Assembly: GCA_035444565.1 (NCBI GenBank)
Contig: DAOMOX010000001.1
Location: 59,987 to 123,986, forward strand
Source of the DNA: Candidatus Dojkabacteria bacterium
GTDB taxonomy: Bacteria > Patescibacteriota > Dojkabacteria > B142 > OLB20
Direction: 5' to 3'
DNA length: 64,000 bases
Below, piece by piece: positions 12,948-46,330 of this stretch. The position numbers and the translations under genes were made by a program. Numbering within the stretch: the first letter of the stretch is position 1; the number at the start of each line of letters is the position of its first letter. Below the pieces are notes generated by a model that saw nothing but the letters and a program-made list of their open reading frames with translations, had not been told where the DNA came from and made no database searches.

Positions 12948-13211
12948 ATGTTTTATATATACATAATTCAAAGCAAAAAGGATCATAAGTTGTATACTGG
13001 TTACACCAAAGACATTGATAAGAGAGTGAGTGACCATAATCTAGGTAAAGTGAAATCAACAAAGGCCAGAATACCTTTTGAGTTAGTTTATAAAGAAATA
13101 TTTAGAACCAAGGAAGAGGCAATCGATAGAGAAAAAGAATTAAAAACTGGTCAATGGAGGGAATTGATAAAAGAATTTATCAAAGATGGTGGCAATAGCT
13201 CAGTTGGTTAG
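12948..13211 (+). CDS. Small GIY-YIG nuclease superfamily protein (YhbQ/UPF0213-like)
   Basis: 'FYIYIIQSKKDHKLYTGYTKDIDKRVSDHN' is a canonical GIY-YIG module followed by a conserved Glu. The 3' end overlaps the first 24 nt of tRNA-His. Confidence 0.75.
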   Translation: MFYIYIIQSKKDHKLYTGYTKDIDKRVSDHNLGKVKSTKARIPFELVYKEIFRTKEEAIDREKELKTGQWRELIKEFIKDGGNSSVG

Positions 13212-13265
13212 AGCGCCTCTCTGTGGAAGAGGAGGTCGTGGGTTCGAGTCCCATTTGCCACCCCA
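13188..13265 (+). tRNA. tRNA-His (anticodon GTG) with genome-encoded G-1 and 3' CCA
   Basis: Manual fold. G-1 precedes acceptor GTGGCAA/TTGCCAC. D arm GCTC-AGTTGGTTA-GAGC. Anticodon stem CCTCT/AGAGG with loop cTGTGga. T arm GTGGG-TTCGAGT-CCCAT. Discriminator C73 then CCA. G-1:C73 is the tRNA-His identity element. Confidence 0.9.
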
Positions 13266-14714
13266 TGTAGGACGCTGGTTCATTTCCACTAATGTAGAGA
13301 AGGGTATTTTATAATCATAGTGCAGTTTTGCACCATCCCAGTTAGCGTTCGATAGTACAAGATTCACAATTTTCGATTTATCGGCGTTATTTTCTTCTCC
13401 TTCTTGTAAAAATAGTTCATGAGCCTCTTGTGAAAGTTCGACAATTTTGTTTGCAGTTGTAAAGAAATTCTTATCCGCTAAATCAATATTCTTTAGCTTT
13501 GTAGTAATCATTCTAATCTCATTAGAGTATTCAGCATACTTAACATCATAGAGGTCTTTAGATATCTTCTCATCAAGATATTCATCATACATTTTGGAAA
13601 GTCTATTCCTTAGTTTGATTTTTCTATCCTGGAGTTCTTTTATTAGATCTTCAGAATAACCAGCCCTATCATTGTTAGTTTTCTTAATTGTTTCTTTAAG
13701 CTCTAATGCTATTTGAGGCTTAATCTTTATTTGTTTAAGTGCCTCTGCTATCTGCTCTGTTAATATTTCTTCCCTAACATAGCTTACAGCGTGTTTTTTT
13801 CTGCCCTGACTACAGCTATAGTAGTGAAAGCCTTTATGTCTTTCGGGGACCATTGAACACCCACAGATGGAGCATTTTATCAATCCCCGATATATGAAAT
13901 TGATTTTACCCATGAGTTTAACAGGATTAATTAATCTATTGGACCTGATATCCTCTGCTTTCCTGAAGAGTTCTTCAGATATTATTTGAGGATAAACATG
14001 CTTGTATTTAATATTCTTTTTCTTGTATGTAGCAATACCTATGTAAAAGTCATCCATTAAAATTCTACCTATCTTACTGCTCACTAGCTTTACATTATCT
14101 TCTTTGAGGGATTGAACAATCTCTCTAATAGACATACCATCATATACATAAAGATTAAAAATCTTCTGAACTACCTTAGAGGTAAACTCATCTACTACAA
14201 TATTATTGGGAACGTTTTTGTATCCATAAGGGGCTTTACCGAGTGATAAACCCTTTGATATCCTTTCATTAATAACCTTCTTAACGTTATCAGAAACGGA
14301 TAGTGCATAGCTTTTAGCAAACATTACCCCCATATCCCACCTCAATAACTCATGGCTCCTGGAGTCCTGGTTAATAACTAGATTTTCTGCTATGAAATGG
14401 ACCTCTATTTTATTGGATTTTCGTAAATCATCGAGTGCTACACTATCTCCGAAGTTACGCATACCTCTATCAATGGTATCAAACACTAATGCTACAACGG
14501 AGTTGAGTTCATCAACACGTTTCAACATCTCTTTGAAGGTTTTACGTTCATGCCTTCTACTTGCAGTTTCTACAACTTGATAAATATCTTTAGGAGATTG
14601 TATGAAGAGGTCGTTTTTTTCAAGGTAGGAATATACCCTCTTGAGTTGTGAAGGGATGGAGAAATTATCGCTTTGGTCTGGAGTTGATACTCTAGTAAAT
14701 ACGAAAGCCCTCAA
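13200..14714 (-). CDS. Large serine recombinase (phage integrase)
   Basis: N-terminal resolvase catalytic domain 'FVFTRVSTPDQ'. Central recombinase domain. Zinc ribbon 'CSICGCSMVPERHKGFHYYSCSQ'. C-terminal coiled coil. The 3' end overlaps the complement of tRNA-His. Confidence 0.85.
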   Translation of the reverse strand: MRAFVFTRVSTPDQSDNFSIPSQLKRVYSYLEKNDLFIQSPKDIYQVVETASRRHERKTFKEMLKRVDELNSVVALVFDTIDRGMRNFGDSVALDDLRKSNKIEVHFIAENLVINQDSRSHELLRWDMGVMFAKSYALSVSDNVKKVINERISKGLSLGKAPYGYKNVPNNIVVDEFTSKVVQKIFNLYVYDGMSIREIVQSLKEDNVKLVSSKIGRILMDDFYIGIATYKKKNIKYKHVYPQIISEELFRKAEDIRSNRLINPVKLMGKINFIYRGLIKCSICGCSMVPERHKGFHYYSCSQGRKKHAVSYVREEILTEQIAEALKQIKIKPQIALELKETIKKTNNDRAGYSEDLIKELQDRKIKLRNRLSKMYDEYLDEKISKDLYDVKYAEYSNEIRMITTKLKNIDLADKNFFTTANKIVELSQEAHELFLQEGEENNADKSKIVNLVLSNANWDGAKLHYDYKIPFSTLVEMNQRPTWGGKWDSNPRPPLPQRGALTN

Positions 14715-14779
14715 GTTATGAATTAATAATTAAACGTGGGAAGTAATCTTATTGAATAACAGATTGAGGATTTTGTCAA

Positions 14780-14998
14780 TTATTTCTTTGGTTGTCTAGG
14801 AGGCTGAGGGGGCTGAGGAATTATTCGTTTTTCTCTCCTATTCCTATCTTGGCTGCCCCTTATTTTCGGTCTAGGAGTTGGACGTTTACCCTGCCCCCCC
14901 ATGTTAATTATATTTCCCCCACTTATTAACAATGTGTTTTCAAAGTGTATTAAAGGCGATTGTGTTAGGATACCTTCTTCAGTTCCAATAATTTCCAT
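14780..14998 (-). CDS. hypothetical small protein with an Arg/Pro-rich basic C-terminus
   Basis: 72-aa ORF ending 'RPTPRPKIRGSQDRNRREKRIIPQPPQPPRQPKK'. Confidence 0.3.
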   Translation of the reverse strand: MEIIGTEEGILTQSPLIHFENTLLISGGNIINMGGQGKRPTPRPKIRGSQDRNRREKRIIPQPPQPPRQPKK

Positions 14999-15177
14999 GC
15001 GAGAATATTTCCTAATATACCTAATGCAACAGGAATATATCTACCTATTGCCCCACCTGCCGCTATTGCATCATCACTCACCATTGCAATCATGGTAGCA
15101 ATTCCAGCATAAAGAATAATCTTTACTGGAGTTGGTAGACTATCGAATTTAGATCTTGTTGTGTAGAGTAATCTCAT
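14965..15177 (-). CDS. small membrane protein (holin-like, 2 TM helices)
   Basis: 70 aa with two hydrophobic helices. Lies downstream of the putative lysin. Confidence 0.4.
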   Translation of the reverse strand: MRLLYTTRSKFDSLPTPVKIILYAGIATMIAMVSDDAIAAGGAIGRYIPVALGILGNILAWKLLELKKVS

Positions 15178-15182
15178 TACAA

Positions 15183-15374
15183 TTAATTAATAGATAAAAT
15201 AGGTGTAGGAACTGGAGCTAGTTCGTTAATGTCTGCACTCAACAATTCCCGATTAAATGTTTGTAGGTAAAAGAGTATTAATATCAGCAGTAAAACAACT
15301 GCTAGTGTGTACATAATAGAATCAGTTTTTCTCATGTTTTCGATTGAATAAATTTTTGATAAAGGTATAAACAT
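15183..15374 (-). CDS. small membrane protein (holin or spanin-like, 1 TM helix)
   Basis: 63 aa with TM 'MYTLAVVLLLILILFYL'. Confidence 0.35.
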   Translation of the reverse strand: MFIPLSKIYSIENMRKTDSIMYTLAVVLLLILILFYLQTFNRELLSADINELAPVPTPILSIN

Positions 15375-16491
15375 CTTTTAATAATCTTTTGTAATCATCT
15401 GCACTCCCTTGTGTTTCCTGGAGGAGTTTCTCATACTTTTCCTCTAGCTTATTGTATTGGGCGGTCTTTGTTATTAATTGAGAGTTTTGCTCTGCAACTG
15501 TATTCTTTAGTTCTACAATTTGAGGTTCCCAATTCAAAGCCTCATTTTCCAATACTAGAATTTGATGTTTCGCCTCTTCAAGTTCTTTCTTTTTGCCTAA
15601 CAGTTCCACGTGGGCTGTATCCAGTTGAGCATTGAGAGAGTCTATAGTCGGTTGTAATTCCTCTACTTGTGCTTTGTATTTGTTTCTATCTGTAGTTAAA
15701 CCCCCAATCCTTGCATTAAGTTTAGCTATCTCACTATCTTTAGTTGCTACAACTTTAGTCATTGTTTCAAGTTCAGTCTTAACCGCTTTGCATGGGTCGG
15801 GTCTATTATCATATTGTTTTGTAACCCCTTTAGCGGTTACTTCATAAAGCGCCTCTAACATACCAGTATTGATTGGTCCCCCATCATTCCCCACACTTTT
15901 ATTACAGAACACAGTCCAGGAGGTACCCTTTGAAATATTCTTAACAGTTGCGTTCTCATTGATAGAACCTGATGTAACCCTCATGTACATATCGGACCCT
16001 TTTAGATAAAGATCATAATTAAAACTCATTGGAGGTTGATTAGAATTAGAAATAGGTAAGTGTACGCCTTTGTTTAAGCCCGTATAGGCATTAGAACCAT
16101 AACTGGTTGATATCTTGATAGATGGGTCCAGGTGTTCTAGGTATCTTAGGTATTTAGTAACTGTACTAGCATATCCGCCAATCTTTATATGCACGTGTAG
16201 AAACTTTGAAGGTACTAAATCAAATGCAATTTCTCCTCTTTTAGCGGACCTTGCATTCCTGATATGAACTGCAAAGAGATAGTAATCTGTTCCAGTTAGT
16301 TTGAATACTGCATAATTGGTTCCATCCCCATTAGGTGCCTCTAATATCTTTTCATAGTCATACCATGCTCTATTAAGTCCAGGAGTATGTACCATGTCTA
16401 GACGATAACCCCCACTCTTTTTATGTTCGGCAGTTTGTAATCCGCCCCCTATGATAAATTCTTTTAAGTAACTGTTCCCTAAATAGCTCAT
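15322..16491 (-). CDS. Putative lysis protein: globular N-terminal domain with an HxH motif (possibly M23-like peptidase) and a ~150-aa C-terminal coiled coil
   Basis: 'LFAVHIRN...FLHVHIKIGGYA' resembles the M23 HxH region. The C-terminal half is a heptad-rich coiled coil. Two holin-like genes lie immediately downstream. Confidence 0.3.
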   Translation of the reverse strand: MSYLGNSYLKEFIIGGGLQTAEHKKSGGYRLDMVHTPGLNRAWYDYEKILEAPNGDGTNYAVFKLTGTDYYLFAVHIRNARSAKRGEIAFDLVPSKFLHVHIKIGGYASTVTKYLRYLEHLDPSIKISTSYGSNAYTGLNKGVHLPISNSNQPPMSFNYDLYLKGSDMYMRVTSGSINENATVKNISKGTSWTVFCNKSVGNDGGPINTGMLEALYEVTAKGVTKQYDNRPDPCKAVKTELETMTKVVATKDSEIAKLNARIGGLTTDRNKYKAQVEELQPTIDSLNAQLDTAHVELLGKKKELEEAKHQILVLENEALNWEPQIVELKNTVAEQNSQLITKTAQYNKLEEKYEKLLQETQGSADDYKRLLKDVYTFIKNLFNRKHEKN

Positions 16492-16587
16492 ATGATGGCA
16501 TTAAGTAAGAAGTAGGTTTGCATCAGAAATAAATAGATTGAAGTAATGGTTACAATAGAGAGAAGAATTTTTATTATCCTAATATCT

Positions 16588-16986
16588 TTATTCATTGTCT
16601 GAATCTAATAATTCAATAGATACGTAAGCTATATCCTTATTCAATGTAGGGTCAAAAGAGAGGTTCACATGGCGGAGGATTGTATAGTTATCATCACTTA
16701 GAATAGCGGTATCTACTAGTAAATCAGCTATGCTTTCAAACTTATTGGAAAGGTCCCATTTTCTCTTACTAGCAGTACCAAAAAGGACATCGATTTTAAC
16801 TGGAGTATTTACTGGAAGTTCTATTTCTGACCGATACAGAGCCTTCTGTACGTTGAGTTCCCATTTCTTATCCCTTGCCCATTGTTCGTGATTAACCGAG
16901 GGTACACTAAATTTTCTACCACCCCTCATAATCATCCTTCTTGAGTTCTTCTTACTAGGGATTATCCCTTCAAGAATAAAGTTCAT
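16588..16986 (-). CDS. rusA: RusA-family Holliday junction resolvase
   Basis: 132 aa. Contains 'PSKKNSRR', 'VPSVN' and 'ILSDDNY', which are conserved RusA catalytic Asp and PSxN blocks. Confidence 0.7.
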   Translation of the reverse strand: MNFILEGIIPSKKNSRRMIMRGGRKFSVPSVNHEQWARDKKWELNVQKALYRSEIELPVNTPVKIDVLFGTASKRKWDLSNKFESIADLLVDTAILSDDNYTILRHVNLSFDPTLNKDIAYVSIELLDSDNE

Positions 16987-17345
16987 TTAGGGGATGAGAT
17001 TAAGTTAAATACAAACTGAATCAAGAATACAACTCCAGGTAATCCCAGGAATGAAATTACAAGCCATAGGTTTTGGAATATCCATTGATTCTTTTCTCTG
17101 TATCTAGTATTGACCTGATGTTCTGCAATCATGTTTTCGGTAATGTCTAAGTGGTTCCTCAATTGGTCCCTTACTCTATTAACCTCTTTTTCTAAGGTAT
17201 CCGTTCTCTTCGTGATAGTATCAATTGCTATTGGAATTACCCGAATCTGCTCTGATACTTCTGCAAACTTCTCAACCATTGTTTGCCTTAACCAACTAAC
17301 ATCATTTTTAATTACAGCAATATCAGTAGTTTCTTGATGGTCCAT
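16983..17345 (-). CDS. hypothetical coiled-coil protein with a C-terminal TM anchor
   Basis: 120 aa. Ends 'WLVISFLGLPGVVFLIQFVF'. Confidence 0.4.
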   Translation of the reverse strand: MDHQETTDIAVIKNDVSWLRQTMVEKFAEVSEQIRVIPIAIDTITKRTDTLEKEVNRVRDQLRNHLDITENMIAEHQVNTRYREKNQWIFQNLWLVISFLGLPGVVFLIQFVFNLISSPK

Positions 17346-17362
17346 AAGGTTTAATTACTAAT

Positions 17363-17425
17363 TTTTGCTTTCGGGAGTATTACTTTTATGTTGCAAAAAG
17401 TCAAGAAAAAAGTAATACTCCGCCC
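17363..17425. promoter_or_regulatory. Bidirectional palindromic late-promoter-like element (TTGCAA-N16-TAATACTCCGCCC going right; TTGACT-N16-TAATACTCCCG going left)
   Basis: 14-bp perfect palindrome arms GGAGTATTACTTTT (17374-17387) and AAAAGTAATACTCC (17408-17421). The element sits immediately before the TerL ATG. The same motif is found at 42786-42820 and 45983-46016. Confidence 0.55.
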
Positions 17426-19873
17426 ATGAAATCAAATACATACACTTACAAAGAGTTAATGATAGAAACAATTCGCAGGAGAAGAGAGGAAAAATATAGG
17501 TTTTATGAACCCATTGGTAAGGTTGAGGAGTTTCTTAATAATTTTGGTTCATGTGATTTTTTTGTTTCTGTGCTGAGTGCCGCTAATGGTGTTGGCAAAA
17601 CTACTTTAATAGGGAATATATTAGCTAATCTATTCTATCCGAATAAGAACTCATACTTTCATCAGAAATTGTTTCAAGATTATCCTTTCTCATTAAAGCG
17701 TGGAAGGATAGTTTCTGAACCTACTACCATCAAAGAAACGATTATACCTATGTTAGAGGAGTGGTTAATTCCTGGTACCTACAAGCGTGAAAAAATGGGA
17801 AAGAATTACTACTACCATTGGGAGGTAGAGGGAGGATGGGTTTTCGATATTATGAGTTATGATCAAGCGGTTAAAGAGTTTGAATCTATTACTTTAGGAT
17901 GGTGTCTCTTTGACGAACCACCGCCTGAACCAATTTATAAAGCCACAGTATCACGTATGAGGCGTGGGGGTATCATTGGTATATTTATGACCCCTCTAGC
18001 AGGTTCAGCCTGGATTTATGATGATATTATTGCTAATCAGAACAATGATGAGGGAGAGAGATACTGGAGTACAGCAGAGATGGAGGACGCTTGTTTTCCT
18101 TTATGGATGGAAGTGTTAACAAACCAAGGTTGGAAAAGTTTTAATGATATAGATATCAAAATTGATAAGTATGCAAGTGTAGATTCATTTAATAATAGAT
18201 TCAGCTTCAAAAAATCAACTAGGTTGGTAGAGAAAACCGCTAATGAATTATGCTATCTCAATAGTGGAATTACCTGCACACCAGATCATGACTTTCCCGC
18301 AATTAGAGATGATGGGAAAATACATAGAGTTAAAGCATCACAACTATACAGGGGAAACAAATTACTAACAAGATCTAGAATACACTCCGATAAACTAAAT
18401 TATTCTCCTGATGAAAGGTTTACACCTCTGCAATGGGCAGAGTTTTTAGGGTGGTATATCTCCGAGGGATGCGCTGAAGGGTCAAAGAGTGGAAATAACC
18501 AACACAATCAAGTAATAATTTCTCAAACAAATAAAAGACTCGAACTAGAAACTTTCCTAAATTCTCTCCAGATAGGGTTTAAAAGTAAAAAATCAGGCGA
18601 TAATTGGATATGTGATGAAAAACTTCATCAAATACTTTCACCACTAGGAACAGCAAGAGATAAATATTTACCTTCATATGTGTTTGAAGGGGATTATGAT
18701 TACAGGCATAGACTCCTCGACTCGTTAATAATGGGAGATGGAGATGAGAACGATACTGCATATAGATATAGGACATCTTCAGAAAGATTATCAGACGATA
18801 TACAAATCCTTGCTATGAGTTTAGGTTACAGAACAACAATTACATATCAATCTAATAGGGAAAGATATATTAAAGGTAAAAAACTTCCAGCTATAGGTGG
18901 TGTTTACACTATACGAATACTAAAAAGTAATAAAAACATTTATATTGAAAGAAAACCAGAAATACATACCACAGAACCACAAAAAGTGCGGTGTGTAACA
19001 GTCGAGGATGGCTACATCTTTGTTCGTAACCCGATAGAGAAAGTACCAGTAATAGCAGGGAATTGTATTGAGCATGGAGTTAGAGGTTTCCTACAACACA
19101 AAGATATTGAAAGGATTGTAAATCAGTTCAGCGAGGAAGATAAACAAGCTAGGGTAAAGGGACAATTCCAGCATTTAACAGGCTTAGTATTCAAACAATT
19201 CCAGCCACAAATCCATGTAATAGAACCTTTCGATATAGATATATATAACTATGTAGTAGTGGAGGCACTAGATACTCATCCACGAGTTCCAGATGCTTTG
19301 CTTTATGTAGCAATAAACGAGCAGGGACAGCACTTTGTTATAGATGAATCCTTCGAGAATAACACAACATCACAACTTGCTTTCAAGATTAAACAAAAGA
19401 GGTCTAACTACAGAGTGGTGAAGAAACTTATTGAACCAGCCGCATTTAACCAGGACCAGCATAGAGATTTAAGACAAGGACAATATGCATCCTTAGCAGA
19501 TGAGTTGTATTACGAACATGGATTAGACTTTGAGGCAGGTAGTAAAAGAAGATTAGATGCCATCAAAAGGATTGGGGACTATTTATCCTATCAGAAAGTC
19601 GGGGACCAGTTCATTACATCCCCTAATCTATATATCTTTAGTAGTTGTACGAGATTGAAGTATGAAATTCAGCACTACTTATGGGATGAGTGGAGAGGTA
19701 AGTCGGCTGAATATAGGTCTAAAAAAGAAACACCAATGGACAAGGATGACCACTTGATAGAGGATTTGGGTAGGGTTCTATTAGAGAACGTTCAATTCAC
19801 ACCATATGTTAAGCCATCTTCAATGGACAATAATTCTATTTCTTATAATTCAGATCCATATGCCAAAGTCTAA
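17426..19873 (+). CDS. terL: Terminase large subunit (TerL) interrupted by an intein
   Basis: N-terminal ATPase with Walker A 'AANGVGKTT' and Walker B 'WCLFDEPPP'. C-terminal nuclease region after the intein. The exteins together are ~491 aa, a typical TerL size. Confidence 0.85.
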   Translation: MKSNTYTYKELMIETIRRRREEKYRFYEPIGKVEEFLNNFGSCDFFVSVLSAANGVGKTTLIGNILANLFYPNKNSYFHQKLFQDYPFSLKRGRIVSEPTTIKETIIPMLEEWLIPGTYKREKMGKNYYYHWEVEGGWVFDIMSYDQAVKEFESITLGWCLFDEPPPEPIYKATVSRMRRGGIIGIFMTPLAGSAWIYDDIIANQNNDEGERYWSTAEMEDACFPLWMEVLTNQGWKSFNDIDIKIDKYASVDSFNNRFSFKKSTRLVEKTANELCYLNSGITCTPDHDFPAIRDDGKIHRVKASQLYRGNKLLTRSRIHSDKLNYSPDERFTPLQWAEFLGWYISEGCAEGSKSGNNQHNQVIISQTNKRLELETFLNSLQIGFKSKKSGDNWICDEKLHQILSPLGTARDKYLPSYVFEGDYDYRHRLLDSLIMGDGDENDTAYRYRTSSERLSDDIQILAMSLGYRTTITYQSNRERYIKGKKLPAIGGVYTIRILKSNKNIYIERKPEIHTTEPQKVRCVTVEDGYIFVRNPIEKVPVIAGNCIEHGVRGFLQHKDIERIVNQFSEEDKQARVKGQFQHLTGLVFKQFQPQIHVIEPFDIDIYNYVVVEALDTHPRVPDALLYVAINEQGQHFVIDESFENNTTSQLAFKIKQKRSNYRVVKKLIEPAAFNQDQHRDLRQGQYASLADELYYEHGLDFEAGSKRRLDAIKRIGDYLSYQKVGDQFITSPNLYIFSSCTRLKYEIQHYLWDEWRGKSAEYRSKKETPMDKDDHLIEDLGRVLLENVQFTPYVKPSSMDNNSISYNSDPYAKV
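18092..19063 (+). mobile_element. Intein (324 aa) with a LAGLIDADG homing endonuclease domain, inserted in TerL
   Basis: Block A starts with Cys ('CFPLWMEVLT'). Block B 'GITCTPDHDF'. LAGLIDADG motifs 'LGWYISEGCAEG' and 'LLDSLIMGDGDEN'. Block F 'VRCVTVEDGYIFV'. Block G 'VPVIAGN' is followed by the +1 Cys ('CIEHG'). Confidence 0.8.
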
Positions 19874-20084
19874 ATCACCTGAAAGAAAACTATTGAGTCA
19901 AAAAGAGTGTGTGATGAAGGTATCAATATATGAGGCTACATTAATCCTGGAATTAAGGAAACTGAGTTTTGGGAATGTAACTATTTATAAAAACATGGGA
20001 GAACCTTTCAGAATTAATCTAAATCAATCTAAGAACCTTAATATAGATGAGGCGGTTAAATCAGAAGATGTACAAATACTCTAA
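19860..20084 (+). CDS. hypothetical small protein
   Basis: This ORF overlaps the TerL 3' end. A start at 19860 or 19914 is possible. Confidence 0.3.
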   Translation: MPKSKSPERKLLSQKECVMKVSIYEATLILELRKLSFGNVTIYKNMGEPFRINLNQSKNLNIDEAVKSEDVQIL

Positions 20085-20113
20085 AATACAATTTTATTTA
20101 TTAGGACAATACA

Positions 20114-20506
20114 ATGCAATTTACAAATTCAGAGGGGAAATACATAGACCTGGAAAGATTCGTATGGATAGCCTTCTACAACGATAACACTTCACTAAGT
20201 CAATTCGATACAGATACTCAAGCGTATCACTACTTCAGAGAGATTGAACAATCTAAACTCATTGTATTTAGGATATTAGATACTTCTAATAATCAGACAT
20301 ACGACCTACAGTTTGACCCTTCAACAATGAAACTAATTCACTTCTATAGAACGTTAGTTGTAAAAGGTGCATCTACAACCCAAATAAGATTAACTTGTTT
20401 TGGATACGAAACAAAGCAAGGGGCAGTAATAAACGTTCTACTTCCCGATGGTAGATTAATCACTACAAATAACAAGGATTTCCATATTAATTTACAGGTT
20501 ATATAA
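20114..20506 (+). CDS. hypothetical protein
   Basis: 130-aa ORF. Its stop overlaps the start of the next gene. Confidence 0.45.
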   Translation: MQFTNSEGKYIDLERFVWIAFYNDNTSLSQFDTDTQAYHYFREIEQSKLIVFRILDTSNNQTYDLQFDPSTMKLIHFYRTLVVKGASTTQIRLTCFGYETKQGAVINVLLPDGRLITTNNKDFHINLQVI

Positions 20507-20507
20507 A

Positions 20508-23500
20508 GTGGCAGTAGTAATAACACAAACAGCCAATCCAGCAGGAGTTAACACATCCTCAAATGTAGCCACATACTCTAGCGTAGCCATTGGAGCTGCG
20601 GCAGCGAATAGAATAGTAGTAGTCTTGGTTGGCTCTGAATTAGCCTCAGCCTCGATAAACTCCGTAACGCTTGGTGGAAACGCCATGAGTGCTGGTACTC
20701 AGGGCAATTTTGGTGCAGTATACGCAAGAGCATTCTATTTAGCCTACCCAACAGGAACGACTGCCGACATCGTTGTTACTTACGGAGCAGGGGCAACAAG
20801 CACACAAAACCATATTGCAGTATATAGCGTAACTGGTGGGGTTTATTCTGCTACTGGAGCAGACCAGTCTAGCGATATGGACACAACCGATAGGCTAACT
20901 ACTGGTGCAATAACAATAGCCTCAGGTGGGGGGTTTATTGCAATTGCGGCAGGTGCTACTGATACTGCTGCCAAGACGTGGGCAAATGCTACTGAGGACC
21001 TTGACGTGGATGCGGGGGGTTTTAGGTTTACGACAGCTACTAGGACAACCGCTCTTACCGCTACTGCGGTTACGTGTACTGGTGGTACTAACGGAGAGGA
21101 TGGTGCATTATCTTATCTCCTCTTTACTGCAAATGTTTCCCCAACAGTTGCACTTAACAGTCCAGCAGATACTGCTACAATAACAGACACTACTCCCGAA
21201 TTGATATTCACAGGAACGGATACTGAGAGTAACGATATAAGGTATAACGTGCAGGTGGATACGGTTAATACGTTTGATAGCCTAGGTGGTGCTGAAGATG
21301 CCCTGTACCTAAATGATAATGGAAACCTAAACGCCTCACCTCTTTCAACTTATACCAACGGAATGTCTTTCTTTTGTTGGGTTCAATTAGAAACATTAAG
21401 TAGGTATCATTTAATATGGTCGAATGGTAGAGGTGGCGACTATGGGGAGGGGTATGAATTTTATATTACGTCTGGTGACAACTCTCTTATCATAGGGTTA
21501 TCCTATATTGGTGGTCATAGCTCTTCATTGTCCATAACAGATACAGATTGGCATTTTGTGGGTTTTACAAGAAATTCTGGTACGTGGACACTATATCTTG
21601 ATGGGTCGTCAGAGGTTGTTGGGACTGGAAACCCATACTCTATAAATGGTGCGAATTCCAAAAGTATGATAGGTGGTTACAATGATGCAGGGACACCTGT
21701 TAGTGAGTTCAAGGGTTCTATTGCTAGGGTTGGATATTGGGAAAGAGTTCTAAGTGGGGGGGAAATAGCAGGCCTTTACGCAGGTGCGTTAGTTTCAACG
21801 CTTTCCTCTAACTTGGTAATTGACTGCCAACTAGATGATAGTGCCAATTTTGGTGTTAATGATGGCTCTGCTGGGGACTTCACAGAAAGTGGTACTTTAA
21901 CAGAGGACACGCTTGGCTTTGATGCAGTAGGCGGTGGACCGTTAATTGATGCAGTCTCTGGTACAGATGCGGGGTTTCTGGACTCACCCGATGAAAGTGA
22001 TACAGACCCTTTCACCTCTGGAACTGCAGTTGCCTATACGGTTCAGTCGGCACTTGACCCCGATACTTATTATTGGAGGGTAAGAGGGCTTGACCCATCA
22101 GGTAGTAATTCGTATGGAGCATGGAGTTCTATTAGGAGCTTTACTATTACATCTGGAGAAACTGAAGTATCAATTACCAAAACCCTTGCATACAAAGTAC
22201 AACCATCAGTCTCTATTACTAAAACCATCGCTTATAGAATTAAAACGGATACTGCCATCACAAAGAATTTGGCTTATAGCATAGTAGATGAAATCTCAAT
22301 AACAAAAGGATTAACGTATGAAGTTATTGTAACCACAACGGAAACAATCCAAAAGGATGTTGACTACACAATTATTACCGATAGCTCAATTCAGAAAGGA
22401 TTAGAATACCAAGTTGTAACAAACGCACAAATACAGAAGGACCTGGATTATTTCATCAAGCTAGAAACATCTATTCAGAAGGATTTAGATTATACAATCC
22501 TTACCTCTGATAGTGTAGTAAAGGACCTGGAGTATATTATCATCATTACTGATAGTATAAACAAAGACCTGGACTATACAGTCCTTACGGAAGGATTAAT
22601 ACAGAAGAGTATGCTTTATGAGGTTGTGGTTACTGGAATTGAGAAGGTACAGGCAACGCTTGACTATACAGTAATTACAAGTACAACAATCCAAAAGGAC
22701 CTAGAGTATTTCATCACTACAGAAGGATTAATACAAAAAGACTTATCCTATAAAGTACAACCCTCAACAACAATAACAAAAGATTTAACTTATACAGTTG
22801 AATCTCAGCAGGATGTTACAAAAGACCTTGATTATCATATAGTAATTCCTAAACTTATACAGAAGGATGTAACTTACTTTATAAAAGGTTCTACAGGTAT
22901 TCAGAAAGATGCTGATTATTCGGTTATAACTACCATCGACCAGGACAAGGCATTAGATTATAGAGTCATAACTGAGGGTGATATACAAAAGGATGTAGAC
23001 TACTACATATCAATCACCACGAACGTAGAGAAAGATATCAATTATAACTTGCAAGTAAGTACAACTATTCAGAAGGGAGTTACCTACTCTATCGATGTCC
23101 CCTCAATAATAGTTCAGAAAGAACTTGACTATGCAATAGTAACAACAACAAGCACAACAACCGACCTTGATTATAATATTCTGCTTGAAAGCACTATTCA
23201 GAAAGATACTGATTATTCGGTTATGGGTAGTACAGCAATAACGAAAGGAATTGAGTATACAGTCATAGCACCACAATCAATTGAACAAGCCCTTCAGTAT
23301 ACAATCGCCATCACACCATCAGCTCTAGAGAAAGCACTTGAATATATCATTGTACAAAGGACCACTAAACAATATGAGTTGAGATATAGGGTAGATGCAC
23401 CTCATAGCATTTCTAAGGATTTAATGTATACTATCGGCGAAAAAATAGGGATATGGATAAAACATCCTGGAGAAAGTTCAGACTCATTCACAAAAGATGA

Positions 23501-23627
23501 AGGAGTATCAAGCACATACACTAAAACAGAATCTGTAACAGCGAGTAGTTATACAAAAGAAGAATCTGTAACACCTAGCATATATACAAAGACGGAGAAA
23601 GAATCGTCTTTATGGACCAAAATTTAG
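20508..23627 (+). CDS. Large tail-fibre or receptor-binding-like protein: A/T/G-rich N-terminal region, LamG/concanavalin-like domain, and ~40 tandem 15-aa repeats (consensus IQKDLDYxIxTxxxx)
   Basis: GTG start. The 20.5-22.1 kb stretch is clearly more GC-rich than its surroundings. LamG-like block 'WHFVGFTRNSGTWTLYLDGS...SIARVGYWERVLSGGEI'. The repeat array spans ~22150-23400. Confidence 0.65.
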   Translation: MAVVITQTANPAGVNTSSNVATYSSVAIGAAAANRIVVVLVGSELASASINSVTLGGNAMSAGTQGNFGAVYARAFYLAYPTGTTADIVVTYGAGATSTQNHIAVYSVTGGVYSATGADQSSDMDTTDRLTTGAITIASGGGFIAIAAGATDTAAKTWANATEDLDVDAGGFRFTTATRTTALTATAVTCTGGTNGEDGALSYLLFTANVSPTVALNSPADTATITDTTPELIFTGTDTESNDIRYNVQVDTVNTFDSLGGAEDALYLNDNGNLNASPLSTYTNGMSFFCWVQLETLSRYHLIWSNGRGGDYGEGYEFYITSGDNSLIIGLSYIGGHSSSLSITDTDWHFVGFTRNSGTWTLYLDGSSEVVGTGNPYSINGANSKSMIGGYNDAGTPVSEFKGSIARVGYWERVLSGGEIAGLYAGALVSTLSSNLVIDCQLDDSANFGVNDGSAGDFTESGTLTEDTLGFDAVGGGPLIDAVSGTDAGFLDSPDESDTDPFTSGTAVAYTVQSALDPDTYYWRVRGLDPSGSNSYGAWSSIRSFTITSGETEVSITKTLAYKVQPSVSITKTIAYRIKTDTAITKNLAYSIVDEISITKGLTYEVIVTTTETIQKDVDYTIITDSSIQKGLEYQVVTNAQIQKDLDYFIKLETSIQKDLDYTILTSDSVVKDLEYIIIITDSINKDLDYTVLTEGLIQKSMLYEVVVTGIEKVQATLDYTVITSTTIQKDLEYFITTEGLIQKDLSYKVQPSTTITKDLTYTVESQQDVTKDLDYHIVIPKLIQKDVTYFIKGSTGIQKDADYSVITTIDQDKALDYRVITEGDIQKDVDYYISITTNVEKDINYNLQVSTTIQKGVTYSIDVPSIIVQKELDYAIVTTTSTTTDLDYNILLESTIQKDTDYSVMGSTAITKGIEYTVIAPQSIEQALQYTIAITPSALEKALEYIIVQRTTKQYELRYRVDAPHSISKDLMYTIGEKIGIWIKHPGESSDSFTKDEGVSSTYTKTESVTASSYTKEESVTPSIYTKTEKESSLWTKI

Positions 23628-23643
23628 CTCTTAAAATAAAATA

Positions 23644-25461
23644 ATGGCAGAAAAACAATCAAGTTTCATTCAGGTTAAGAATATCAATTCGGGAGGAATT
23701 GCAGAAAGTATTTTTCAGGGACCACCTAATTCAGTTGCTGAGGCAGTTGGACTAGATCTTCATTCAGTTCCTGGAGAAATTAGAGTCAATCAAGCACCAG
23801 TTAAAGCAAGTAGTACAGTTGTTACAGAGTTTTGTAAGGTGTCAATTGCACTATCAACTGGACAAGTATTATTCTTCAGTAGTTCATCAGGGAAGATATG
23901 GTTAGAAGGTAGTCCTTATACCCTACTCGATACAACAGCCCCTACAAATGGTAGTGCAGGATGTAGCGGAGCTTGTGAGTATGATGGTTATCTATATTGG
24001 GCTACACAAAACTATATTCATAGGATAAGAATAGATAAGATAGCTACATTCTCTACAGACAAAGAGGAGAATTGGGGAGAGTTACATCTAGACCAGGAAG
24101 AAATGGGAGGGACTGGACAGTCATACACTCTTCAAACATCAGTTAATGAGGGAGAAACACATAAAATCCCGATTAATTTCCATGAAAGAATACAGTATGG
24201 AATTGGAATACAGGTATTGGCTAAAGGTACTGGAGACTGGACAATAACACTTCATGATGAAGATAACAACTCTATCACCTCTAAAACAGTTACAAATGCT
24301 AGTTTAGCTAATGGATGGAATTATTTACTTTGGACTACTCAGCTAACAGTTGATAGAAGTTTGAATTATCACATACACATACATTCAACTGTAGCGGATG
24401 GGACAATGAACACACTAACAGGGAATGATTTAGCACAAGGGAGTGTGAAGATTTTCACATTAGGGGACCCCGATTATCATCAAATGAAGATACAGAATCA
24501 AACCCTATACCTTGCAGATAGACATTACATTCACCAAGTGGGAGAGAATGAGGGAGTACATATATTCACTAATTGGGCGTTGGACCTTACAGAACCTCAT
24601 AGGATTAAATGTTTAGGTAAATCCCCTGGAACAGACTTAATAATAGGAACTCATGTAGACAACGGAGTAGAAGAGGTACAAGTGGCGGTATGGGATACAT
24701 TCTCTGAGGCACCAATATTCATTGACCCAGTAAAAGAAAGATCTATTCATACATTCCTAGAGCTTGATAATGGATTATTAGCAATAGCAGGTGATAGGGG
24801 TAGAGTATACGAATACAACAATTATAGACTACAGAAGAGAAAGTCTATTCCTGGAGAATATTCACCATCAAAGTATGTAACAGTTCATCCTGAGGCAGGT
24901 ACAGTATTAGATGGTTTGCCAATATGGGGAGTATCTAATGGGACAGGTAATCCATGCAAACAAGGGGTTTACAGTTATGGAAGTAAAAATCCAGCCTATC
25001 CATTCATACTAAATCTTGAGTTTGTAATATCCGAAAGGAGTGGAAGTGATTTTGTTACTAGTAATATCGAGATAGGAAGTTTACTTGCTAAAGGAAACGA
25101 CTTGTACATAACATGGAAAAATGGCTCCTCTTATGGTGTAGACAAGCTAGATTATAATACTAAACTCAACGGAGCCTATTTTACTACACGAGCATTATTC
25201 ATCAGTAGAATCTATAGAGATGTATTCAAAAATATATATCTACCCTATAAATCACTACCTGCTAATACAAACATAGGAGTACAGAAGAGTATCCGATATG
25301 GTTCATATTCTAGCTGGAATGATGTTCGTAACGACACCGACAACTACATGATGGTTAGCCACAACGAAGAGAAGGCTAATATTATGCAGATTAAAGTTTC
25401 ATTTACAACAAGTGGGAACAATGCCCCCATACTTGAAGAATTATTAGTTGAAATAGCATGA
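23644..25461 (+). CDS. hypothetical virion or tail-associated protein (605 aa)
   Basis: Long ORF in the same operon. Confidence 0.5.
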   Translation: MAEKQSSFIQVKNINSGGIAESIFQGPPNSVAEAVGLDLHSVPGEIRVNQAPVKASSTVVTEFCKVSIALSTGQVLFFSSSSGKIWLEGSPYTLLDTTAPTNGSAGCSGACEYDGYLYWATQNYIHRIRIDKIATFSTDKEENWGELHLDQEEMGGTGQSYTLQTSVNEGETHKIPINFHERIQYGIGIQVLAKGTGDWTITLHDEDNNSITSKTVTNASLANGWNYLLWTTQLTVDRSLNYHIHIHSTVADGTMNTLTGNDLAQGSVKIFTLGDPDYHQMKIQNQTLYLADRHYIHQVGENEGVHIFTNWALDLTEPHRIKCLGKSPGTDLIIGTHVDNGVEEVQVAVWDTFSEAPIFIDPVKERSIHTFLELDNGLLAIAGDRGRVYEYNNYRLQKRKSIPGEYSPSKYVTVHPEAGTVLDGLPIWGVSNGTGNPCKQGVYSYGSKNPAYPFILNLEFVISERSGSDFVTSNIEIGSLLAKGNDLYITWKNGSSYGVDKLDYNTKLNGAYFTTRALFISRIYRDVFKNIYLPYKSLPANTNIGVQKSIRYGSYSSWNDVRNDTDNYMMVSHNEEKANIMQIKVSFTTSGNNAPILEELLVEIA

Positions 25462-25730
25462 AAATAATTAATAACAAAGTGTTTACTGATATTGGAGATT
25501 TCAATCCGATGGAGAGGGACCAGGACATTCAGTCAGGGGACCAGAACAATTTCCTTTCAAACACAAGAAAGCTAACGATTGGAGAGGGTTCAGCAAGTAT
25601 TAAGATGGGAAAAGAGGGTTTATGGAGTGGTAGTAGAACGTTTATTACAGCACCATTCAGGATGGATATAAACGGAAACATGACCTGGAATGATGGTACT
25701 ACAGATAGAATGTATATCGGACGGGTTTGA
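25458..25730 (+). CDS. hypothetical protein
   Basis: 90-aa ORF with an ATGA overlap onto the upstream gene. Confidence 0.4.
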   Translation: MKIINNKVFTDIGDFNPMERDQDIQSGDQNNFLSNTRKLTIGEGSASIKMGKEGLWSGSRTFITAPFRMDINGNMTWNDGTTDRMYIGRV

Positions 25731-25795
25731 AAAGGTTCAAAAGTATTTGAAAGTCTTTAGGACTGTTAAGGACTGTTAAGGACAACTTACAAAAC

Positions 25796-27919
25796 ATGAA
25801 TGAGTTCAAAATAGAAACAGGTACAATAACGCTATCAGATACTATCGATAATGGGATAGAGCAAACTATCACGTTCAAATTCCATTACGTAGACCCTATC
25901 ATAGTGGCATATATCGCTACTAGAAATAATGGAGAATCTATTGATGTTAGAGTTCATGATGTAACAAGTAACAGTTGTAAGATTTATACTCAAGAACCTA
26001 GCCTCGGTACACATGGGACCGAAGATATTAATTACATGATTGTAGAGGCTGGAGAGTGGACACTACCTTCAGGCAAGAAAATTAAAGCTGGAAAAACTTC
26101 AACACAACATCAACATTACTCAGGAAATTCTTATTTAGGGGATAAAATTACATTTTCAGATGCATTTTCAACAGCTCCAGTAGTGATACACCAAATTTCG
26201 AGCCAAAATAGCCCTAATTTCTGTAGTAGTGCCATATTGAGTATTGCATCAACTGGTTTTGAAATAACACAAGAAAAAGGCGGTACAGCTACCGACCTTT
26301 CAGTAGAAACTATAAATTGGATTGCATTTGAGAATACTGGAGGAAATTTTGTGTTTGATCATGGACAAACTGTAAAAATGGAAGTTGACGTTGAGAACAA
26401 TGGATTTTCTGATGGTATAGATAATACTTATCATGAATACACTTTTACTAATACTTACACTTCCACCCCTTATGTAATAGCTAAGATGAATAGTTCTAAT
26501 GATACAGATGGAGCATGGAGTAGAGCCTCAGCTACAGCAACTAACACAACAAGGACAAGAGTATATGCTGAAGAGGACCAGGTGGGAGATAGTGAGAGGA
26601 GCCATAATGACGAGAGTTTCGGGTTCGTTGTTTTCTCTAAACATATTGCATGGAGAGATTGCCTTTCATCTAATGGGTTTAAGATGGAAGTAGGACAAGT
26701 AAATAGTGAGGGTTCGATATACGACCACTCGGTGTTTGTAGAGTTCCAGAATAACTATATAAATCCAATAGTTGTAGCCTTTATTCAAACCAGGAATAAT
26801 ACAGGTTCAATGATAGTTCAAACACTTATAGATGATAGTTTAGAGGGCTATCAGTTCGCCTCATTGTATCTTATCAATATGAGAGATGAAGTGGGTTTAA
26901 GTAAAGGCTTTATAGTAAACATTCAAAATGCTAGTGCATCCTTAGGAGCAAATGCTGAAAAGATTTCCTACATAGTGGTAGAGGCTGGAGACTGGACATT
27001 ACCCAATGGGTTACATATCCAAGCAGGAAAAGCATCTAGTTTAGAATACCATGAGACAGTAGAGGCTTATACAGGTACAACAATACCATTTTATAGCGCT
27101 TTCAGTTCTACCCCTATTCTATTACATAGTTGCGGTGCTAGTTGGTACACAAACGGAACTGTATTAGGTTTTGGAGTAACTACCACAAACTTCAAGTGTG
27201 TAATTGAGAAGGCTGGTTTAACAACATCAAACGGATATTCAGATGTTCCTTGTTATATGAATTGGATTGCTATTGATGATGCAAATGGTTCATTTACACT
27301 ACATGATTCTATTGACTTACTAATGGAAACAAAGAAAGGTTCTCCAGGTGTGAATTGTGGTGTAGATGATACTGCTTATGTTATCAATTATGCTAACACT
27401 TATAGTGTAGCCCCCATAGTAATTGCATCTCAAAATACTGGTAATGGTTCTGATGGTGGATGGGCGAGAGGTTCAGGTACAAACTCAACAACACAGTTCG
27501 GCATTTATTCAGAAGAGGACCAAATATCAGATAGTGAGAGGGCGCATACTAGCGAGACTTTCTCTTTTGTTGTTTTCGAGTCTACATTTAGTCTAGACCT
27601 TACAGAAGAAACTATCACACCTCCATTAGACTACACCATTAAAATATCCCTGGAAGGTAATTCCGTAAACAATGAGAATTTACCAGAGTATGCTCATGCG
27701 ATTATTGATAACAGACAAGCATTAAAAGAAGTTAGTTCAGGTTTATCAGACCAAGATATTGATATAGGTTATTCATTAGGGATGCCCCTTGCTATGTCCT
27801 TTACACGTTCAGGAAACTATAGGTTCGGATTAGTGGGTACAGAATTGGATATGTCCGACCTTCTAAGCCCCTCAGAAGGCTTTTATAGAATATTTTACAA
27901 TAACACTAAAACAGGATGA
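25796..27919 (+). CDS. Tail-fibre or adhesin-like protein with an internally duplicated A-B-A-B domain organisation
   Basis: A-type: 'PIIVAYIATRNNGESIDVRVHDV' and 'PIVVAFIQTRNNTGSMIVQTLIDD', each followed by 'IVEAGEWTLPSGKKIKAGK' or 'VVEAGDWTLPNGLHIQAGK'. B-type: 'DGAWSRASATATN...DQVGDSERSHNDESFGFVVFS' and 'DGGWARGSGTNST...DQISDSERAHTSETFSFVVFE'. Confidence 0.55.
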   Translation: MNEFKIETGTITLSDTIDNGIEQTITFKFHYVDPIIVAYIATRNNGESIDVRVHDVTSNSCKIYTQEPSLGTHGTEDINYMIVEAGEWTLPSGKKIKAGKTSTQHQHYSGNSYLGDKITFSDAFSTAPVVIHQISSQNSPNFCSSAILSIASTGFEITQEKGGTATDLSVETINWIAFENTGGNFVFDHGQTVKMEVDVENNGFSDGIDNTYHEYTFTNTYTSTPYVIAKMNSSNDTDGAWSRASATATNTTRTRVYAEEDQVGDSERSHNDESFGFVVFSKHIAWRDCLSSNGFKMEVGQVNSEGSIYDHSVFVEFQNNYINPIVVAFIQTRNNTGSMIVQTLIDDSLEGYQFASLYLINMRDEVGLSKGFIVNIQNASASLGANAEKISYIVVEAGDWTLPNGLHIQAGKASSLEYHETVEAYTGTTIPFYSAFSSTPILLHSCGASWYTNGTVLGFGVTTTNFKCVIEKAGLTTSNGYSDVPCYMNWIAIDDANGSFTLHDSIDLLMETKKGSPGVNCGVDDTAYVINYANTYSVAPIVIASQNTGNGSDGGWARGSGTNSTTQFGIYSEEDQISDSERAHTSETFSFVVFESTFSLDLTEETITPPLDYTIKISLEGNSVNNENLPEYAHAIIDNRQALKEVSSGLSDQDIDIGYSLGMPLAMSFTRSGNYRFGLVGTELDMSDLLSPSEGFYRIFYNNTKTG

Positions 27920-28464
27920 GTAATTATGCTATAAAAATATCACAACAGGGAAAGGATATACACCTTGCAGACTATAACGAATTACGTTTCACTTCTGAAT
28001 TTCCCGCTTTGAAGGTGGGGCAAAGTGGATATCATCAAGTATTACTTGCTAGACAAATAGATCCTACATTACAGATGACACCAGTTCTTTATGCTCAAGT
28101 AAAAATCCCTCACAATGTGGGAAAAACACCAATGTTCATAGCATATACACAACACCATACAATAGCGGAAACATCTACAAAAGTTGAGAGTTTCAAACAA
28201 TTCAGTTGGACCGACATACTAAGCATTGATGCAACATATGATTATATTGAAATTACAAATGAGTACAAAGCATACACCGATGATAAATATATCTACTTCA
28301 CCTGGACCATTACATCCCCTACTGATTTATACGAAAGATTAGACTTCTTTTACTTTATCTTTGAAGAACCACAAGCACAGAATGAATACAATATAGTTGG
28401 AGATGGATTTGCAGGTAATTCTATAGTTGGACAAGGCATAGTAGCAAAACCTTTTAATTCTTAA
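27916..28464 (+). CDS. hypothetical protein
   Basis: 182-aa ORF with an ATGA overlap. Confidence 0.45.
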   Translation: MSNYAIKISQQGKDIHLADYNELRFTSEFPALKVGQSGYHQVLLARQIDPTLQMTPVLYAQVKIPHNVGKTPMFIAYTQHHTIAETSTKVESFKQFSWTDILSIDATYDYIEITNEYKAYTDDKYIYFTWTITSPTDLYERLDFFYFIFEEPQAQNEYNIVGDGFAGNSIVGQGIVAKPFNS

Positions 28465-28473
28465 TATGTAAAA

Positions 28474-29232
28474 ATGAATATACCAGACCTAATAAGAGTA
28501 GCAGGAAATTATATTAGAACCTCTACTACTACAGCTTTTGATAATAATGATTTAACCTTTGATGTTTACGACCCTACAAAAATAGAAAGTGAAGGAGGAT
28601 TACTAGAGGTTCAATACGATGTCCCTCATAAGAGAGAAGTAGTATATGTAGTTTCCAAATCAGGGAATACATTAACTATTGCGGATGATGGAAGAGGATT
28701 ATATGGTACAAACGCACAGGACCATCCAGCCAATTCTAAGGTGAGAGATTTTTTTGTATCGGACCATATCAATCAATTTACTTCTACTGTATTAGGAATA
28801 ATATATCCTATTGGAAGTATCTATATATCCACTAACTCATCATTACCAACTTACATATCAGCATTGGGTACTTGGACAACATTCGGGGCAGGAAGAGTTT
28901 TAGTAGGTAGAGATAGTGGAGATACAGACTTTGACACCGCAGAAGAAACAGGAGGACAAAAGACAACACGACATGCCTATCCTATCACAGCATTAAATAG
29001 TAGCCAATTTCAAGACCCTGGAGCCGCATATTGGACCTCAGTTCGTGGAGATATCAATTCATACTTAACTGGTGGTGGTTCATCATCAGTATCATCACAA
29101 ACAGCAGTTAGAGGAGTTGGAGGTACAGGAGGGACAACTGGTACAGGGAATACAGAAGTTACACACGATAGATATACCGCAACCAACCTACAACCATATG
29201 TAGTAGTTTATATGTGGAAAAGAACAGCATAA
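28474..29232 (+). CDS. hypothetical tail-associated protein with a Gly/Ser/Thr-rich segment
   Basis: 252 aa, including 'GGGSSSVSSQTAVRGVGGTGGTTGTGNT'. Confidence 0.45.
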   Translation: MNIPDLIRVAGNYIRTSTTTAFDNNDLTFDVYDPTKIESEGGLLEVQYDVPHKREVVYVVSKSGNTLTIADDGRGLYGTNAQDHPANSKVRDFFVSDHINQFTSTVLGIIYPIGSIYISTNSSLPTYISALGTWTTFGAGRVLVGRDSGDTDFDTAEETGGQKTTRHAYPITALNSSQFQDPGAAYWTSVRGDINSYLTGGGSSSVSSQTAVRGVGGTGGTTGTGNTEVTHDRYTATNLQPYVVVYMWKRTA

Positions 29233-29702: not shown

Positions 29703-29719
29703 GTTTAGCAACGAGTCCA

Positions 29720-29741
29720 ATAAGGGTACCCTTATTTTTTA
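29720..29741 (+). terminator. Rho-independent terminator (ATAAGGG-ta-CCCTTAT followed by a T6 run)
   Basis: Perfect 7-bp stem, 2-nt loop and T-tract, 18 nt after the stop of the last plus-strand gene. It is embedded in the 'aggtttagcaacgagtccaa' boundary element. Confidence 0.7.
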
Positions 29742-29814
29742 CCCTCTGAACGCATTGTGGGGAGTTTATTTAGCCCCTAGAAACGGTTCACCTATCCTAG
29801 TTGATACTTCCTAT

Positions 29815-30771: not shown

Positions 30772-30862
30772 TGTTTGTTATAGGGTTTTAGGACAACTAA
30801 TATTTGTATACTACTATGTTAACTTCTATAAAGTATGAGGTCAATTAAGATTTCGACTAAAA

Positions 30863-37696: not shown

Positions 37697-37719
37697 AGTT
37701 GCAAATATAGATAAATCAA

Positions 37720-39659: not shown

Positions 39660-39677
39660 TTTGATTAGACATAATAA

Positions 39678-46329: not shown

Positions 46330-46330
46330 G

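Follow-up and report, generated by a model that had tools for sequence, protein, structure and literature searches.

A predicted bifunctional intein in the large terminase gene of a Candidatus Dojkabacteria prophage

The terminase precursor and its insert

The window analysed here is a 64,000-nucleotide stretch of the Candidatus Dojkabacteria bacterium assembly GCA_035444565.1 (contig DAOMOX010000001.1, positions 59,987 to 123,986 of the forward strand). It is a piece of bacterial chromosome that carries a prophage, and our subject is an in-frame insert in the prophage gene for the large terminase subunit (TerL). The TerL precursor open reading frame (ORF) occupies positions 17426..19873 of the plus strand, stop codon included, and encodes 815 amino acid residues (aa). 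The product is identical to NCBI HRN86084.1/HRP50761.1, a Candidatus Dojkabacteria bacterium entry named 'hypothetical protein', and P0001, the parent protein with 100% identity to that of the window, is encoded on a 620,866-bp contig. The insert comprises codons 223-546 (18092..19063; 972 nt, 324 aa). It starts with TGT (Cys1, 18092-18094), runs to AAT (Asn324), which ends at 19063, and is followed by another TGT (Cys+1, 19064-19066); this matches to the base a preliminary description of the DNA, which had reported a 324-aa insertion with Cys at its start and Asn followed by Cys at its end. With a GC content of 0.344, the insert is slightly poorer in G and C than the exteins (0.374-0.375).

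The features of the gene described here all lie on the plus strand, and the motif coordinates were verified by translation. The N-extein (aa 1-222; 17426..18091) ends with ...AEMEDA and contains the TerL ATPase core, with Walker A (SAANGVGKTT, 17576-17605), Walker B (WCLFDEPP, 17900-17923) and a C-motif-like sequence (FMTPLAG, 17984-18004). The C-extein (19064..19873) extends from CIEHGVRGFL... to the stop codon and includes an RNase H-like nuclease domain with the motif DKDDHLIEDLG (19739-19771). Excision of the insert in silico yields a 491-aa protein with both Walker motifs upstream of the site, in line with the TerL of about 491 aa that had been anticipated.

Sequence models recognized the host protein only weakly: Pfam Terminase_6N reached 15.4 bits against a cut-off of 22, the terminase matches in PHROGs were weak, neither a terminase nor an intein model of NCBIfam matched, and the TerL family profile found no match among PDB chains by sequence. 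Within the TerL family, Terminase_6N matched 15 of 40 members (best E 5.3e-9), and tblastn retrieved annotated phage terminases, including those of a Manatee Spring Caudoviricetes (31% identity, E 8e-50) and of Arthrobacter phages. An AlphaFold2 model of the spliced protein (predicted local distance difference test score, pLDDT, 84.5) had as its best Foldseek matches in the PDB D6E TerL (E 1.6e-15), T4 gp17, Sf6 gp2, HK97 TerL, the P74-26 ATPase and the P22 nuclease. Walker A, Walker B, the C-terminal RNase H-like nuclease and the predicted TerL fold are all present, and judged by sequence and model the host protein is a large terminase. In the model the splice junction falls at the end of the ATPase core, about 30 residues past the C-motif-like TPL, after a strand (212-217) and a short helix (219-222) and before helices 234-261.

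Searched alone against Pfam, the insert matched LAGLIDADG_3 with 25.0 bits, over the cut-off of 22.5, and in a single-sequence search of the PDB the only significant match was PI-PkoII (E 1e-4). A word-index protein search with the intein alone returned nothing and missed even the parent protein, which was taken as a limit of the index, and an exhaustive profile search was used instead. The profile of 16 family members matched the PI-PkoII endonuclease (5.9e-18) and three archaeal VMA inteins (2e-13 to 1e-7), together with the NrdHF and NrdJ inteins, a bacterial intein-like domain (BIL), PI-SceI, I-DmoI and PI-MtuI. The AlphaFold2 model of the insert (pLDDT 91.8; predicted template modelling score 0.90) has a HINT fold: its 16 best Foldseek matches in the PDB were all homing-endonuclease inteins (TliVMA, PhoVMA, PI-SceI, PI-PfuI and PI-PkoII), with E from 1e-17 (best 1.2e-17) to 1e-9, followed by I-DmoI (E about 1e-4, probability 1.0) and then by the Hedgehog autoprocessing domain. 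The profile search, which the preliminary description had called for, identified a HINT splicing domain and a LAGLIDADG endonuclease, and the fold search agrees; on this sequence and model evidence, which stands beside the empty allele presented below, 18092..19063 is a full-length HINT intein whose splicing domain is interrupted by a double-motif LAGLIDADG homing endonuclease.

The same layout, a HINT domain split by a double LAGLIDADG endonuclease, is found in the solved structures of TliVMA/PhoVMA (7qsu, 7qss, 7qst), PI-SceI (1vde), PI-PfuI (1dq3) and PI-PkoII (2cw7), which resemble the insert with Foldseek E of 1e-17 to 1e-10 (template modelling score about 0.6) and profile E of 6e-18 to 2e-13. 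They share no more than 12-18% of their residues with the insert, sit in other hosts and at other sites, and are larger (360-540 aa versus 324 aa), so that the insert has no room for any of the extra domains of the larger solved inteins.

The insert opens with block A, CFPLWMEVLTNQGW (18092..18133), in which Cys1 is the predicted first nucleophile. Block B, GITCTPDHDFPA (18266..18301), has Thr63 at B:7 and His66 at B:10, with Phe68 rather than Trp at B:12. The first LAGLIDADG motif, AEFLGWYISEGC (18437..18472), includes ...YISE125G and the second, LLDSLIMGDGD (18713..18745), includes ...MGD216G, Glu125 and Asp216 being the predicted catalytic acids. Block F, VRCVTVEDGYIFVRN (18986..19030), carries Cys301 at F:4, a position held by Asp in standard inteins, and block G, VPVIAGN plus Cys+1 (19043..19066), includes Ala322 at G:5, the penultimate Gly323 and the terminal Asn324. 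Both LAGLIDADG-like motifs reported between the splicing blocks were therefore located, and the agreement as a whole goes far past what chance would produce. The claim that blocks A, B, F and G are canonical stands for A and B and fails for F and G, which are present with non-canonical residues, Cys at F:4 and Gly at G:6. A 65-aa minus-strand ORF inside the intein (18579..18776) had no support as a gene, and a scan of all six frames of the window with the family hidden Markov model (HMM) detected no second intein.

Empty alleles and mobility of the intein

With the extein-only sequence as query, 529 homologues were retrieved. The insert is absent from 116 of the best 120 of them (440-540 aa), and no alignment column falls between residues 222 and 223. 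The second-best match, P0002, is a 491-aa protein that is 97% identical and reads ...STAEMEDACIEHGVRGF..., exactly the predicted spliced product. The corresponding DNA (L001/L002) comes from four independent assemblies in which the neighbouring genes are the same, and when it is aligned to the window the only gap is one that covers precisely 18092..19063. The insertion site is a conserved motif, A-x-V-E-D-A/C-x-x-H-G-x-R-G-x-L (the slash marks the site, here and below), in which the +1 Cys is native to 90% of the intein-less homologues and R229, G230 and L232 are invariant. Conservation of this kind suggests that the motif has a functional role in TerL.

The preliminary description had noted that the 324 aa could be a native domain shared by TerL homologues. 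Since the extein-only sequence aligns without a gap across the junction and an exact empty allele exists, the 324 aa are not a native accessory domain. An assembly chimera is ruled out by the recurrence of the same arrangement in independent NCBI, JGI, ENA and Logan assemblies, and a group I intron with a free-standing endonuclease gene by the continuous reading frame, the HINT fold and the in-frame deletion that keeps the +1 Cys.

In two further TerL alleles of this phage (P0003 and P0004, three assemblies each) the same site is occupied by an intein. At the protein level their exteins share 97% identity with those of the window, whereas the three intein alleles are just 62-66% identical; in DNA the corresponding values are 89-91% and 63-67%. 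Synonymous (dS) and nonsynonymous (dN) divergence was estimated by a simple Nei-Gojobori/Jukes-Cantor procedure in an AT-rich genome, and the exteins gave dS of 0.5-0.8 with dN/dS of about 0.02. In the inteins the proportion of differing synonymous sites (pS) is 0.66-0.75, at or near saturation, so that the intein values are lower bounds, and dN/dS is about 0.06-0.18, endonuclease segment included; within that segment the proportion of differing nonsynonymous sites (pN) is 0.23-0.27 versus a pS of 0.60-0.78. Saturated synonymous sites together with low dN/dS, set against the values for the exteins, indicate that the intein lineages are older than the divergence of the present host genes and are under purifying selection. 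When the empty allele L001 was compared with the intein-plus allele L008, the N-extein dS was 0.07, and four of the ten differences were concentrated in the 58 nt next to the junction, beyond which about 340 nt are free of differences, a pattern that hints at a co-conversion tract.

Homologous inteins were found at the same site in eight further TerL clusters, and the history of the intein is separate from that of its host gene: P0125 and P0128 are 44% identical in their exteins and 67% in their inteins, and for P0001 and P0141 the values are 22% and 35%. Family members also occupy other TerL sites, one in the nuclease motif D-H-x-M-D/C and another in Gordonia phage GMA6. The presence/absence polymorphism, the divergence of the alleles, the clustering of differences at the junction and the decoupled identities are population evidence that supports the earlier view of an actively mobile element, as far as sequence comparison can tell.

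Family signature and predicted mechanism

The profile of the three closest alleles, run against 1.84 billion cluster representatives, matched 5911 proteins, 2254 of them at E<=1e-10. Residues were counted in 305 related intein domains, with a denominator that varies by position. Cys1 is present in 229/229 domains, the C-terminal Asn in 227/232, and Ser, Cys or Thr at +1 in 229/229, so the doubt raised in the preliminary description, that the splice-junction residues might not be conserved in relatives, is answered by essential invariance over 229-232 domains. Block B of the window intein (T63-P-D-H66) is canonical, and the family has Thr at B:7 in 256/265 and His at B:10 in 264/265. At F:4 Cys is found in 218/241 domains and Asp in 12, and Cys is invariant at this position in our alignment A2. 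Gly occupies G:6 in 213/232, the penultimate His being absent from the window intein (Gly323). The LAGLIDADG acids are conserved in 262/265 (motif 1) and 274/280 (motif 2), as are residues Q145, K191 and D236 of the endonuclease domain. B:12 is Trp in none of 265 domains, and G:5 is Thr in 31/233. This distribution indicates that Cys at F:4 with the penultimate Gly is a family signature and not degeneration.

Some features of the wider family were recorded in passing. Five domains have Gln instead of Asn at the C-terminal position. Among the top matches of the intein profile (P0123-P0269) are many proteins of 2000-3700 aa with two to six intein stretches, and some of their insertion sites resemble RNA polymerase motifs (GRHGNKG/C). 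Unrelated proteins, among them a methylase and a replication protein, also contain members.

Block F:4 is usually Asp in standard inteins, and Cys at this position is the obligate nucleophile of class 3 inteins, which are defined by the lack of an N-terminal nucleophile and by the WCT triplet of Trp B:12, Cys F:4 and Thr G:5 (PMC2807308). The window intein has the F:4 Cys and the phage association in common with the class 3 inteins (prototype MP-Be DnaB; Tori et al. 2010, PMC2807308), but differs from them in having Cys1 and in lacking Trp B:12 and Thr G:5. Class 3 membership is ruled out, because Cys1 is present and invariant in the family and the triplet positions read Phe68, Cys301 and Ala322.

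A closer relative is the intein in the recombination directionality factor (RDF, a metallophosphoesterase) of mycobacteriophage Bethlehem, which the family HMM matches at 4e-21. It shares Cys1, the block B T..H, Cys at F:4 (VWCLRVPNG), the Gly-Asn end (TGN/S), a LAGLIDADG endonuclease and residence in a phage; it differs in host protein and site, in having Ser instead of Cys at +1, in its low sequence similarity and in belonging to an actinobacteriophage rather than a Patescibacteria prophage. This intein splices completely in Escherichia coli, and the substitution G316H slowed splicing (Kelley et al. 2016, mBio, PMC5050341). Because an intein with the same signature splices, there are good grounds to expect, by analogy, that the window intein is splicing-competent.

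The following cycle is proposed. Translation would give the 815-aa precursor, unable to act as a terminase. The HINT domain would fold and take a class 1 route, with an N-S acyl shift at Cys1 helped by Thr63 and His66, and the thioester would then be transferred to Cys+1. Asn324 would cyclize without a penultimate His, Gly323 and Cys301 (F:4) presumably being the family's own solution, and an S-N shift would complete the 491-aa TerL with the junction ...EDA-CIEHG... in the ligated peptide ...AEMEDACIEHGVR.... Once freed, the 37-kDa intein would act as a double-motif LAGLIDADG endonuclease, its catalytic acids being Glu125 and Asp216. It would cut the empty site, about ...GAGATGGAGGATGCA/TGTATTGAGCATGGAGT..., when an intein-less phage of this group meets the prophage or a co-infecting intein-plus phage, and recombinational repair would copy the intein in, possibly with the help of the phage's own RecT.

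Our reading is that 18092..19063 is a full-length bifunctional intein in the ATPase domain of a prophage large terminase, with class 1-like splicing and homing into empty alleles, and we put its probability at about 0.88. It builds on boundaries fixed to the base, on the predicted fold, on membership of the intein family with its catalytic residues conserved, and on population data: the intein is polymorphic for presence and absence, is under purifying selection and has a history of its own, apart from that of the host gene. Several points weigh against it. Splicing, DNA cleavage and the target sequence are things that we infer. The Intein_splicing model of Pfam matched the insert with E 4.7e-5 and 23.7 bits, under its gathering score of 35.8, and NCBIfam had no intein model for it. 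The block F Asp and the penultimate His, which help catalysis in textbook class 1 inteins, are both missing, so that the class 1 route is assigned by analogy. The population evidence is limited to four independent alleles of TerL from the phage group, its synonymous estimates carry the saturation noted above, and the co-conversion signal consists of only four of ten mismatches, with p about 0.01 by a rough hand binomial estimate.

Among other explanations, an intein that splices with an inactive endonuclease, carried along by vertical descent at a late stage of homing and no longer mobile, is unlikely. Endonuclease activity is a prediction, the deep divergence of the three same-site alleles could mean long residence, and most TerLs of the family have no intein. 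Against such a passenger stand the conserved LAGLIDADG acids and accompanying residues, the purifying selection on the endonuclease segment, the presence and absence of the intein in near-identical backgrounds with differences clustered at the junction, and the decoupling of intein from extein identities. It is highly improbable that the insert is a dead, non-splicing remnant in a defective prophage and the gene effectively a pseudogene: the prophage is integrated in an uncultivated host and can only be presumed inducible, but the ORF is uninterrupted, all splice residues are kept across three alleles with saturated synonymous sites, the extein dN/dS is very low, and phages of this type are found both in an unintegrated attP form and, with intact gene order, in many samples. 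That the 324 aa are an accessory domain native to this lineage of TerL, or an assembly chimera, is scarcely credible: only the weak single-sequence Pfam scores could speak for it, as against the exact empty-site allele, the 116 homologues without the insert, the recurrence of the arrangement in independent assemblies and the intein fold itself.

The remaining alternatives concern the role of Cys301. A non-class-1 or hybrid mechanism, in which Cys301 would serve as the relay nucleophile, in the manner of class 3, or form a disulfide with Cys1 or Cys+1, making splicing redox-conditional and gating terminase maturation, we hold to be very unlikely. The prevalence of the F:4 Cys, its obligate part in class 3 splicing and the disulfide-bonded precursor conformers seen in a mutant of the Bethlehem RDF intein (PMC5050341) are in keeping with it; Cys1 is universal in the family, however, the T..H of block B is canonical, the WCT triplet, whose occurrence goes along with class 3 splicing, is missing, and splicing of the parental RDF intein is rapid and complete and shows nothing that points to conditional control (PMC5050341). 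A broader proposal, that Cys1/Cys-F:4/Gly-Asn inteins, that of the window included, are a mechanistically distinct and very abundant subclass in which the F Cys replaces the Asp and His helpers and could be a relay nucleophile or a redox switch timing terminase maturation, we consider decidedly unlikely. Phages and very large multi-intein proteins would both contribute to such a subclass, which would comprise no fewer than 2254 protein clusters at E<=1e-10. If it were real, the Dojkabacteria phage series of one empty and three intein alleles would be a natural set for dissecting the mechanism and among the first documented cases of homing among Patescibacteria phages.

Prophage context and other terminase inteins

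The prophage that carries the intein spans about 40.2 kb (about 13266..53443), as defined by comparison with the unintegrated contig L005, and lies at a tRNA-His gene (13189..13265, plus strand) that was the integration target and has the attL core at its 3' end. The bacterial flank includes genes for the alpha, gamma and beta subunits of ATP synthase (3.7-7.5 kb), and a large serine recombinase (13200-14714, minus strand) has its last codons within the tRNA-His gene. The attL end was placed at 13265 by aligning the window with the attP form in L005 (a JGI contig, L005 5736-5900). The attR core is CACCCCA (53437-53443), and the att core is imperfect, TCCCAT..G.CACCCCA (window 13189-14714 and the 53338-53443 region). 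A direct-repeat search revealed no att sites, as expected because the integrase is a serine recombinase, and Rfam found only tRNA in the window. The prophage also encodes a capsid protein, an SU10-type portal, RecT, a helix-turn-helix (HTH) small-terminase-like protein and lectin-domain fibre proteins.

Several repeats and variable regions were observed around these genes. A Phage_rep_O-like gene (46331-47185, minus strand) contains four to six iteron-like repeats, GTTTCCTTTTGGTAACTA, spaced 18-63 nt apart (46755-46898), probably, by analogy with lambda, the phage replication origin. A 1039-aa Laminin_G_3 protein (20508-23627) has many 42-nt (14-aa) repeats at 22297-23264 (K-D-L-D-Y-x-I-x-T-x-x-x-I-Q); the 5' part of its gene (20509-22185), with GC up to 0.42, either shows only 68% identity or cannot be aligned between phages whose sequences on both flanks share 88-95%, and is probably a receptor-binding hypervariable region. 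A 707-aa H_lectin protein (25796-27919) contains an internal duplication of about 940 nt (26021-26067 versus 26957-27003; 26564-26635 versus 27506-27577). Near the right end of the prophage two paralogous segments (51162-51314 and 53044-53196), 1882 nt apart, cover the starts of small plus-strand ORFs; L005 holds only part of this region, which seems to be a variable accessory module adjoining attR. Upstream of the tRNA-His gene, in a 1.1-kb stretch without an ORF of at least 90 aa, two 72-nt direct repeats (12615-12686 and 12804-12875) are 72% identical, each including TTGATATAATCT; Rfam has no match for them, and they are possibly duplicated promoters or genes for small RNAs.

TerL is the commonest phage intein host, with seven ATPase-domain sites in mycobacteriophages (TerL1-a to -e, TerL6-f and Pham3880-g; PMC5050341; bioRxiv 10.1101/2025.01.02.630785), and a recent survey of actinobacteriophages counted 293 TerL inteins (bioRxiv 10.1101/2025.01.02.630785). 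Like the window intein, these have a LAGLIDADG endonuclease and interrupt conserved motifs of the ATPase domain; their distribution is sporadic, and homing between phages and prophages has been proposed for them (PMC5050341; bioRxiv 10.1101/2025.01.02.630785). The window site, EDA/CIEHG, about 30 residues after TPL, differs from the P-loop, Walker B and C-motif sites of the actinobacteriophage inteins, and the family member in the TerL of Gordonia phage GMA6 lies at yet another site, just before Walker B. The latter protein (L011, KR063280.1 370-2850; AKL88284.1, 'putative large terminase subunit') contains an unannotated Cys-F:4/Gly-Asn intein (CFRKDTELLT...VYCVETP...SMSGN/S). An 800-aa TerL relative of the window protein (P0076, 50% identical) has a different intein at a second site, in the nuclease motif (DKDDH/CLVGKT...IVHN/CIEDLGR), with a canonical His-Asn end and no obvious LAGLIDADG motifs.

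The window intein is a real, well-supported and ordinary example, which would work like the known TerL inteins and displays the defining features that were tested, except for two residues that are typical but not obligatory; it leaves the knowledge of inteins unchanged in kind. Three things only are new: the Patescibacteria prophage host, the particular insertion site and the clean allelic series. In practical terms, the 'hypothetical protein' of several Candidatus Dojkabacteria genomes should read intein-containing large terminase. Few phages have been linked to Patescibacteria hosts so far, and integration at tRNA-His beside bacterial ATP synthase genes ties a widespread group of phages of about 40 kb to such a host. 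The locus adds a member to a class 1 variant that has received little discussion, marked by Cys at F:4 and Gly in the penultimate position. With an exact empty site, three deeply diverged same-site alleles in nearly identical phages and a second intein site in a relative, it is a clean natural data set that illustrates the homing cycle.

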